Below are positions 13,354 to 13,522 of a stretch of DNA of 64,000 nt, one piece after another. Position numbers and translations under genes: made by a program. A model generated the notes under the pieces. It did no database searches. It was not told the origin of the DNA and worked only from the letters and a program-made list of their open reading frames with translations. This DNA is from Chlamydiales bacterium (lineage in GTDB: Bacteria > Chlamydiota > Chlamydiia > Chlamydiales > SM23-39). The number at the start of each line of letters is the position of its first letter. Position 1 is the first letter of the stretch. Where the stretch lies: NCBI GenBank assembly GCA_030681135.1, contig JAUXXF010000025.1:12156-76155 (forward strand), in the 5' to 3' direction.

Positions 13354-13522
13354 GAGTCTGTCTTTGAATTGAGCTTCTGTTGGTTTTCGGGTTCTTTTGA
13401 GCCTATTTTCGATTCTTTTTTGGGGAATTGTATTAACTAACCGTTTACTACCCCAAAAAAGAATCGAAAATCGGCCAAAATAACCCCGAAAACCAACGAA
13501 GCCTCAACTCAAAGACAGACTC
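13354..13522. repeat. long imperfect palindrome (family A), ~70-bp arms
   Basis: Left arm GAGTCTGTCTTTGAATTGAGCTTCTGTTGGTTTTCGGGTTCTTTTGAGCCTATTTTCGATTCTTTTTTGGGG pairs with right arm CCCCAAAAAAGAATCGAAAATCGGCCAAAATAACCCCGAAAACCAACGAAGCCTCAACTCAAAGACAGACTC. The core GTTCTTTTGAGCC.ATTTTCG / CGAAAAT..GCCAAAA recurs at 58.6 and 63.6 kb. Confidence 0.75.

Follow-up and report, generated by a model that had tools for sequence, protein, structure and literature searches.

A 169-bp palindrome beside the chlamydial ytg metal-uptake operon as a probable, recently inserted miniature transposon

Assignment of the palindrome

A 64,000-nt stretch of DNA from the metagenome-assembled genome (MAG) 'Chlamydiales bacterium' (GCA_030681135.1, contig JAUXXF010000025.1, positions 12,156 to 76,155 of the forward strand; the whole stretch is referred to as the window) carries an imperfect palindrome at 13354-13522, in the spacer between the metal-uptake gene ytgA and a divergently oriented gene for a protein of 174 amino acids. 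With a probability of about 85%, this palindrome (copy 1) is a non-autonomous DNA transposon, that is, a miniature inverted-repeat transposable element (MITE), moved by a transposase of the IS1031 type, inserted recently into the ytgA spacer and now decaying without a dedicated function. The initial annotation had proposed a dispersed MITE- or REP-like element that had landed in a regulatory region. The first term was upheld by multiple copies, terminal inverted repeats (TIRs), duplications of a TNA target and an empty site in relatives, whereas the second was not.

Empty sites and timing of insertion

Four relatives whose 174-residue protein is 90% identical to that of the window (L118, L119 (GCA_964440435.1), L123 and L124) have the same gene order with a ytgA spacer of 160 nt. 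When the spacers were aligned (alignment A2), both flanks matched the window, and exactly the 169 bp plus a few bases were missing in the relatives. The window reads ...CTACATAA, element, CGAGGGTG... at the position at which L123 reads ...CCACTGAAAGGTG..., so that the insertion point lies at CCACTGA|AAGGTG in the relatives, as against CATAA, the 169 bp and CGAGGGTG in the window. The orthologous spacers of sister genomes thus contain a precise empty site and not conserved promoter DNA shared with the window. The triplet at the empty site of L123 is TGA; this would fit a TNA target from which the two triplets now present in the window, TAA and CGA, had each changed once.

In the closer relatives L120-L122 (98%) the element is present. 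The contigs of L117 (identical to the window) and of L120, L121 and L122 (Logan short-read assemblies) all end within it, evidently because short-read assemblers break at the repeat. Copy 1 would accordingly have been inserted at a TNA site in the spacer between ytgA and the 174-residue protein gene after the split from the 90% relatives and before the split from the 98% relatives.

A second member of the family in the window (copy 3, described below) also has empty counterparts: truB and ychF are 4-5 nt apart in L125 (GCA_027457345.1) and L127 (GCA_964440435.1), and 170 nt apart in the window. TruB with the insertion ends at the same residue as in the relatives (...SI* versus ...GI*).

Sequence and predicted fold

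Inverted-repeat analysis gave exactly the coordinates of the initial annotation, in which arms of about 70 bp and a 25-nt loop had been described: the arms (13354-13425 and 13451-13522) are 72 nt each and 85% complementary, and the spacer between them is 25 nt long. Among the inverted repeats of at least 30 nt in the window, of which there are five, two are members of the family of this palindrome. As RNA, the element was predicted to form a single long hairpin on the plus strand (-97.4 kcal/mol, z = -18.1) as well as on the minus strand (-103.4 kcal/mol, z = -16.2), and none of 200 shuffled sequences was equally stable in either case; the DNA fold of the 169 bp amounted to -65 kcal/mol (z = -16.1).

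The plus orientation of the family was defined by GTTCTTTTGAGCC in the left arm. Copy 1 lies in this orientation (profile score 130 bits on the plus and 78 bits on the minus strand) and is 78% identical to the family consensus. Its ends are of the GAG...CTC ('A/B') type, and GAGTCTGTCTTTGA at the left terminus pairs with TCAAAGACAGACTC at the right terminus without mismatch, which makes them TIRs. The conserved core GGGTTCTTTTGAGCCTATTTTCGATTC lies in the left arm (13354-13425), together with two boxes that resemble CGATTTTCG in degenerate form, the apical loop (13426-13450) has diverged from the family loop (ATATCAAC..CGTATAT), and the right arm (13451-13522) carries the conserved TCGAAAATCGGCCAAAATAAC. 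The flanking triplets, TAA on the left (13351-13353) and CGA on the right (13523-13525), were read as decayed copies of a TNA target-site duplication.

Copy 1 has no coding capacity: three open reading frames (ORFs) of the minus strand, ytgA included, touch it, and none is contained in it. When the window was searched with Rfam 15, no family reached its gathering score for the element, and only two tRNAs in the window did so. A known structured RNA was rejected as an explanation; the sub-threshold matches were to generic long-hairpin plant microRNA models (none above 55 bits, where the gathering scores are 119-297).

A sequence that is palindromic, intergenic and repeated might also be a palindrome of the REP/BIME (bacterial interspersed mosaic element) type, a bidirectional intrinsic terminator or a product of chance; the probability left for these three together is close to negligible. 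Chance is ruled out by the fold (z about -18) and by more than 100 homologous copies. As to a terminator, no U-tract follows the long stem on either strand, the only terminator-like site is a weak one of six pairs inside the left arm, and the location between divergent promoters leaves nothing to terminate. An intrinsic terminator or attenuator was therefore rejected, and with it the bidirectional attenuator that had been suggested for this site. REP elements are described as 20-40 bp long with GTAG or CGTC heads and without target-site duplication (PMC3733652). The chlamydial element resembles REP/BIME sequences and their RAYT (REP-associated tyrosine transposase) systems as a repeated extragenic palindrome; the features that define REP are absent from it, since it is 169 bp long, has GAG ends and belongs to a family with target-site duplications.

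Distribution of the family in Chlamydiota

One genome per prokaryotic species was scanned with the pattern GTTCTTTTGAGCNNATTTTCG, which represents a 21-nt core. More than 116 stretches among the matches listed contained it, and these came from at least about 50 assemblies (counted by accession prefix). The genome of the window is not represented among the matches listed. The core is hence repeated well beyond the window copies, contrary to the alternative of unrepeated promoter DNA that relatives would share. The carriers are labelled Rhabdochlamydia, Rhabdochlamydiaceae, Parachlamydiaceae, Parachlamydiales, Simkaniaceae, Chlamydiia and Chlamydiota, together with several 'Verrucomicrobia' that are probably mislabelled. 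At least ten copies with the exact core were found in OY970369.1, a complete MAG chromosome of 2.2 Mb. Viral contigs gave three chance matches without a palindrome, and PLSDB plasmids gave none. Many of the carriers (L004, L011, L012, L030, L032, L051, L106 and others) were deposited as 'Verrucomicrobia(e)', others as 'Holophagales' (a contig of 1.9 kb) or as 'Chlamydia trachomatis isolate MaH-04nov19-293'. The family could serve as a lineage marker and might flag chlamydial contigs that are mislabelled or mis-binned.

Nearly all core matches are palindromes of 165-180 bp and of one design. A terminal helix of about 20 bp forms the outermost part; further in come the inner module (TTCTGTCGATTTTCGGGTTCTTTTGAGCCGATTTTCGATTC ... 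GAATCGAAAATCGGCCAAAATAATCCCGAAAATCGACGAA), an apical stem that is variable and ends in GGGGG/CCCCC, and the loop ATATCAAC..CGTATAT. The most similar pairs of copies lie within single assemblies (L007/L036/L072, 98-99%; L013/L082, 99%; L011/L077, 99%); as far as the sequences tell, this is the pattern expected of bursts inside a genome and of recent activity elsewhere.

Full-length copies lie outside long ORFs in 83 of 84 cases, and about 23 of 78 copies abut the stop codon of a neighbouring ORF, as a consequence of the TNA target (TAA, TGA, or TTA followed by G, which gives TAG). An orientation bias relative to co-directional flanking genes (6 in the same and 26 in the opposite direction) was not relied on; with a stricter ORF cut-off it became 9 against 17 (p = 0.17). 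The family fragments short-read assemblies, abuts and can rebuild stop codons (truB at copy 3), and enters tightly coupled operons (truB-ychF).

Two copies are interrupted. In L022 (2612-4048) the interruption lies in the loop and is apparently a group II intron, with an ORF that resembles a reverse transcriptase/maturase, judged by the appearance of this one ORF. In L033 (about 3650-5400 in core-oriented coordinates) the right arm is interrupted by an insertion with an ORF of 508 amino acids, possibly the transposase of an insertion sequence (IS). 'Broken' copies that had been considered as ends of IS elements turned out to be truncated or interrupted MITEs.

Similar habits are known from the Correia elements of Neisseria and the ERIC/IRU (intergenic repeat unit) elements of enterobacteria, which are imperfect palindromes of 100-170 bp, intergenic, often co-transcribed, present in tens to hundreds of copies and flanked by a TA duplication. 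The likeness extends to the breaking of short-read assemblies; there is no sequence similarity, and the chlamydial family has a TNA duplication instead. No description of a MITE family in Chlamydiota was found in full-text searches of the literature, and the Waddlia genome paper notes only abundant repeats of more than 200 bp. A MITE family thus appears to be present in dozens of environmental chlamydial genomes, yet none was found described.

Ends, target-site duplications and putative transposase

The flanks of the copies were compared separately for each class of ends. With GAG...CTC ends, the class of copy 1, the 3-bp flanks are identical in 38 of 50 copies, and in each of these they read TNA (TTA, 22-24; TAA, 11-13; TCA, 7-9); shuffled pairing of the flanks gave 14.7 identical cases on average and 25 at most. 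Copies with GAACC...GGTTC ends, the class of copy 3, have a 2-bp duplication in 9 of 16 cases, and copy 3 itself has TTA on both sides. With AGACC...GGTCT ends, 5 of 12 copies show a 3-bp ANT duplication. In the family alignment, 95% of the terminal helix is paired.

Elements of the IS1031 group prefer a TNA target and produce exclusively a 3-bp direct repeat (PMC12016507). The inverted repeat of one of them, ISLrh, is GAACCTGTCTAGTATCT (PMC12016507), and family ends such as GAGGGTGTCTACAAAG and GAACCTATCCCAGTAA resemble it in a comparison by eye with this single published repeat. The likeness lies in ends that start with GA(G/A) and contain ..TGTC(T/C)A.., in the TNA target and in the exclusive 3-bp repeat (PMC12016507). 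Judged by sequence, the TNA duplication at GAG...CTC copies is the signature of transposition of the IS1031 group (IS5 family), and the chlamydial family was most probably moved in trans by a DDE transposase of that group, the identity of the enzyme being deduced from ends and duplications. Such a transposase would recognise the inverted ends of about 20 bp and duplicate the 3-bp TNA target. Differences from the IS1031 group are that the chlamydial element has no transposase gene, that its two other end classes give 2-bp and ANT duplications, and that its inner module is the most conserved part.

Tourist-type MITEs, which belong to the PIF/Harbinger superfamily of eukaryotes, generate a 3-bp TWA duplication. 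The chlamydial copies are like them in being short, AT-rich, hairpin-forming and non-coding, in a 3-bp TTA/TAA duplication and in a preference for gene-adjacent positions; the family differs in being bacterial, in having TCA duplications as well and in being far more palindromic over its whole length. PIF/Harbinger is described as related to IS5 (PMC12730594).

Promoters, leader and the question of co-option

The initial annotation had held that both promoters of the divergent pair must coexist with the palindrome or lie inside it, and that the element may have been co-opted. The first statement does not agree with the comparison of relatives, and the second finds no support in it. The block of 123 bp that extends from the ytgA start to the insertion point (13231-13353), left of the element, is almost the same in relatives devoid of the palindrome, and the only two promoter-like sites in 13150-13650 are both located in this block, hence outside the palindrome. 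One of them, a sigma-70/66-like promoter (TTGCTA-17-TATAAT, 13301-13329, plus strand, 10 of 12 matches), faces the 174-residue protein gene and is conserved in the relatives without the element; the other (TTTACC-17-TATACT, 13261-13289, minus strand) faces ytgA. Any YtgR operator presumably lies beside the element and not inside it. The control region of ytg metal uptake is thus not built around the palindrome, and the element should be masked in annotation and in modelling of YtgR regulation.

From the position of the conserved promoter, transcription towards the 174-residue protein gene is inferred to start near 13336, about 17 nt before the element, which would probably place the latter in the 5' leader of that gene. 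The insertion point would be about 25 nt downstream of the -10 box, and the element would be transcribed as a 169-nt hairpin, by which a leader of about 55 nt would grow to one of about 230 nt; the promoter on the ytgA side and any operator there would have been left untouched. In the predicted fold of the leader, the AGGA ribosome-binding site stays unpaired beside the hairpin (-97 kcal/mol).

Such an arrangement would suit a co-opted cis-regulatory hairpin that serves in the leader of the 174-residue protein gene, for example as an RNase III site, as a stabiliser or by modulating translation, or else a DNA cruciform that couples the divergent promoters. Beyond the position of the element just behind the likely transcription start, and the stable hairpin with its accessible AGGA site, this is favoured by the one orientation shared by the three window copies and by the fact that Correia and ERIC elements affect transcripts in other bacteria. 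It is nevertheless quite unlikely. The element is absent from the 90% relatives, which keep the same promoters, and the orthologous copy in the 98% relatives has diverged faster than the flanking non-coding DNA. Between the window and L120/L122 the identity is 86.8% in the element, compared with 95.2% in the adjacent spacer, 94.9% in the 174-residue protein gene, 91.5% in the next spacer and 92.1% in the TLC gene. The changes include uncompensated ones that destroy a conserved box (the right-arm box TCGAAAATCGG of the window is TTGAAAGCAGG in the 98% relatives), and the arms of copy 1 are only 85% complementary, as against 96.2% paired cells in the family as a whole. The missing U-tract on both strands also counts against co-option, as does the modest excess of G:T (76) over A:C (49), which gives little sign of selection at the level of RNA from one strand. 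As for a cruciform, a 25-nt loop and mismatched arms make its extrusion unlikely. Copy 1 was therefore regarded as a recent insertion; that it is now decaying neutrally, with no dedicated function, is inferred from these sequence comparisons.

Conserved inner module and points against the assignment

Several observations do not sit easily with a plain MITE that was moved by an IS1031-type transposase and then decayed.

The first group concerns transposition itself. An autonomous IS whose ends match was looked for in the window and in 0.8 Mb of related loci, and none was detected. TIR-like 16-mers away from the cores belonged only to further MITE derivatives, to solo ends and to MITEs with unrelated inner sequence, and the ORFs beside solo ends were not transposase-like by their first residues, no search of them against a family library having been made. 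A single TIR pair of IS size with a TNA duplication was detected and rejected: it is the MITE in L022 that is interrupted by the group II intron-like insertion. At copy 1 the flanks TAA and CGA are not identical, which requires the duplication to be taken as decayed. Within the TNA duplication, the central base is furthermore biased in the orientation of the element (TTA 22-24 versus TAA 11-13, and TCA 7-9 versus TGA 0-1), and such a bias should not arise from a symmetric transposition reaction. The neutrality at the ytgA locus rests on one pairwise comparison.

The second group concerns the inner module. The inner 125 bp or so are more conserved across the phylum than the ends, and they occur with no fewer than three classes of ends and duplications (TNA, 2-bp and ANT). 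A conserved core with interchangeable ends is an odd pattern, the reverse of the usual one in MITEs. In both arms the module hardly varies, which holds also for the right arm, on which the search pattern did not select, and the bulge and mismatches of the module are conserved as well (GAGCC versus GGCC; TTCTTTTG versus CAAAATAAT). Ends of the AGACC type also flank unrelated inner sequences (L087 and L051), and a 27-bp element in L013 (at 5765) consists of two ends only.

In addition, the apical stem covaries almost perfectly. In 68 copies, 41 of 62 base pairs are changed on both sides; two-sided changes were counted in 637 cells, compared with 179 in shuffles, and every slid control fell to 34-55% pairing. 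Across the family 96.2% of the cells are paired, and wobble is rare (G:T 76 versus A:C 49 of 4210 cells), which indicates that it is Watson-Crick complementarity of the DNA that is preserved, rather than the fold of an RNA from one strand. Relative to the asymmetric core, the loop can point either way (44 flip, 12 flop); L009, for example, has ATATCAACATTCGTATAT and L012 its exact reverse complement. The covarying stem, the two-way loop and the biased duplication base suggest something more than cut-and-paste followed by decay.

A structure-specific mobile or recombination module would be one way to account for this: the core would be read as a folded hairpin in the manner of attC or IS200/IS605, or it would be a selected protein-binding cargo. 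To the near-invariant core with its conserved bulge and mismatches, the two-sided changes with few wobbles and the loop in both orientations may be added four CGATTTTCG/CGAAAATCG boxes per element and the combination of the same inner module with three end classes. Integron attC sites, whose R''/L''/L'/R' boxes follow GTTRRRY, offer a parallel: like the chlamydial copies they are imperfect palindromes in which conserved boxes lie towards the base, the central stem varies while remaining complementary, and certain unpaired bases are conserved. The chlamydial copies differ from them in being single and dispersed, in having target-site duplications and in forming no arrays, and none of the flanking genes that were inspected encodes an integrase. 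An attC site as such was rejected; the core GTTCTTT also does not fit GTTRRRY.

This explanation was considered very improbable. The clear target-site duplications and the IS1031-like ends favour ordinary DDE transposition of double-stranded DNA; the copies are dispersed singly and not in cassette arrays, and the neighbouring genes surveyed include neither an integrase nor an HUH gene. Template switching or gene conversion between the arms is a further possible source of the covariation and of the inverted loops; in L062, L048 and L014 the right arm has been converted to the left-arm type. The core moreover decays after insertion, which would place any constraint on active master copies and not at the host loci.

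Under the preferred assignment to an IS1031-type MITE, the same observations would be explained by two processes, both of which were proposed from sequence comparison. Template switching or gene conversion from arm to arm would account for the covariation and the loop inversion, and selection on transposition-competent master copies (for instance on the four CGATTTTCG boxes as putative subterminal binding sites) would account for the invariant core and its conserved mismatches.

Alongside this, a role for the inner module in its own right was considered. The module of about 125 bp might be a selected, structure-dependent DNA module that is carried on at least three transposon chassis and has persisted across families of Chlamydiota, an idea that is unlikely but was suggested by the pair of CGATTTTCG boxes in each arm, spaced by about 22 bp, the asymmetry of bulge and mismatches, the hypervariable Watson-Crick stem and the flipping loop. 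An unusual transposition step might then require it as a hairpin or as a protein-binding site, or it might be a platform for a conserved chlamydial DNA-binding protein.

Further copies and other palindromes in the window

A blastn search of the window with the 169 bp gave matches at 63598-63726 (E 2e-16) and 58621-58739 (E 5e-12 and 2e-4). An nhmmer profile of the family, built from 67 full-length members, detected exactly three places, namely 13353-13522, 63579-63748 (E 1e-31) and 58617-58729 (E 3e-11). The relatives announced at 58.6 and 63.6 kb are thus real by both methods. The related motifs announced at 46.3 kb were traced to a different palindrome (46306-46487), which was detected neither by blastn nor by the family profile at E <= 1. 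All three copies are in plus orientation, the element being polar with a much stronger profile match on the plus strand; they are about 64% identical to one another and have the core GTTCTTTTGAGCNNATTTTCG in common.

In copy 2 (58610-58739, plus, 130 bp), which is followed downstream by nusA (58794), the apical stem-loop has been deleted. This copy is predicted to fold far less stably than the others (-43.6 kcal/mol, z = -6.5). It begins directly after the rpsA stop codon TAA (58607-58609), which may be its target-site duplication.

Copy 3 (63580-63747, plus, 168 bp), with ends of the GAACC...GGTTC ('C') type, is located between truB and ychF and is flanked by the TTA duplications at 63577-63579 and 63748-63750. 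The stop codon TAG of truB (63578-63580) is composed of the TA of the left duplication and the first G of the element. The last base of the right duplication overlaps the ychF start codon ATG (63750-63752), so that the ribosome-binding site of ychF must now be within the right end of copy 3 (AGGGATAGG).

The palindrome at 46306-46487, of about 180 bp, has 40-nt arms that are 75% complementary and is flanked by a deaminase-like gene and an ArsC-family gene. It has 73% identity over 101 nt with 38884-38984 and short matches in the chlamydial loci L010, L002, L092 and L093; the two sequences probably represent a second MITE-like family, separate from that of copy 1. An inverted repeat at 38990-39167 (51-nt arms, 92% complementary, 76 nt apart) adjoins the sequence at 38884-38984. 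A further inverted repeat at 21791-22144, which is G+C-rich and unrelated to the family of copy 1, has 59-nt arms that are 95% complementary and 236 nt apart, and it encloses a 32-nt perfect-like palindrome (21936-22006). It is situated directly downstream of tRNA-Arg (21692-21764) and upstream of an amino-acid permease gene.

The metal-uptake locus and neighbouring genes

The window has a G+C content of 43%; in the source MAG, the locus tag Q8L98_06910 belongs to protein P0001. The genes beside the palindrome are those originally described. On the minus strand, ytgA (12247-13251), for which relatives start at the ATG at 13230, encodes a metal-binding protein of the ZnuA family and is followed downstream by ytgB (11478-12245, minus), an ABC ATPase gene, and by a ytgC-ytgR fusion (10140-11456, minus) with an ABC-3 permease and a C-terminal Fe_dep_repr_C (DtxR-type) domain. 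The latter is presumably the same permease-repressor fusion as YtgC-YtgR of Chlamydia. To the right of the element on the plus strand is the gene of the conserved chlamydial 174-residue protein (13566-14090), for which no Pfam or NCBIfam family was matched and 1642 relatives were found. The element occupies 169 of the approximately 314-335 nt between ytgA and this gene, in keeping with the 'about half of the spacer' of the initial annotation. The next gene encodes a TLC ATP/ADP translocase (14245-15804), and the order lepA, TLC transporter, small ORF and ytgA is, as we take it, reminiscent of the CT064-CT067 region of C. trachomatis.

Between the TLC transporter and lepA, an ORF of 330 amino acids was noted on the minus strand (15856-16848). 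Its match to the ubiquitin C-terminal hydrolase (UCH) family is sub-threshold (E 1.4e-4, 22 bits, cut-off 23.9), and the ORF may encode a deubiquitinase-like effector.

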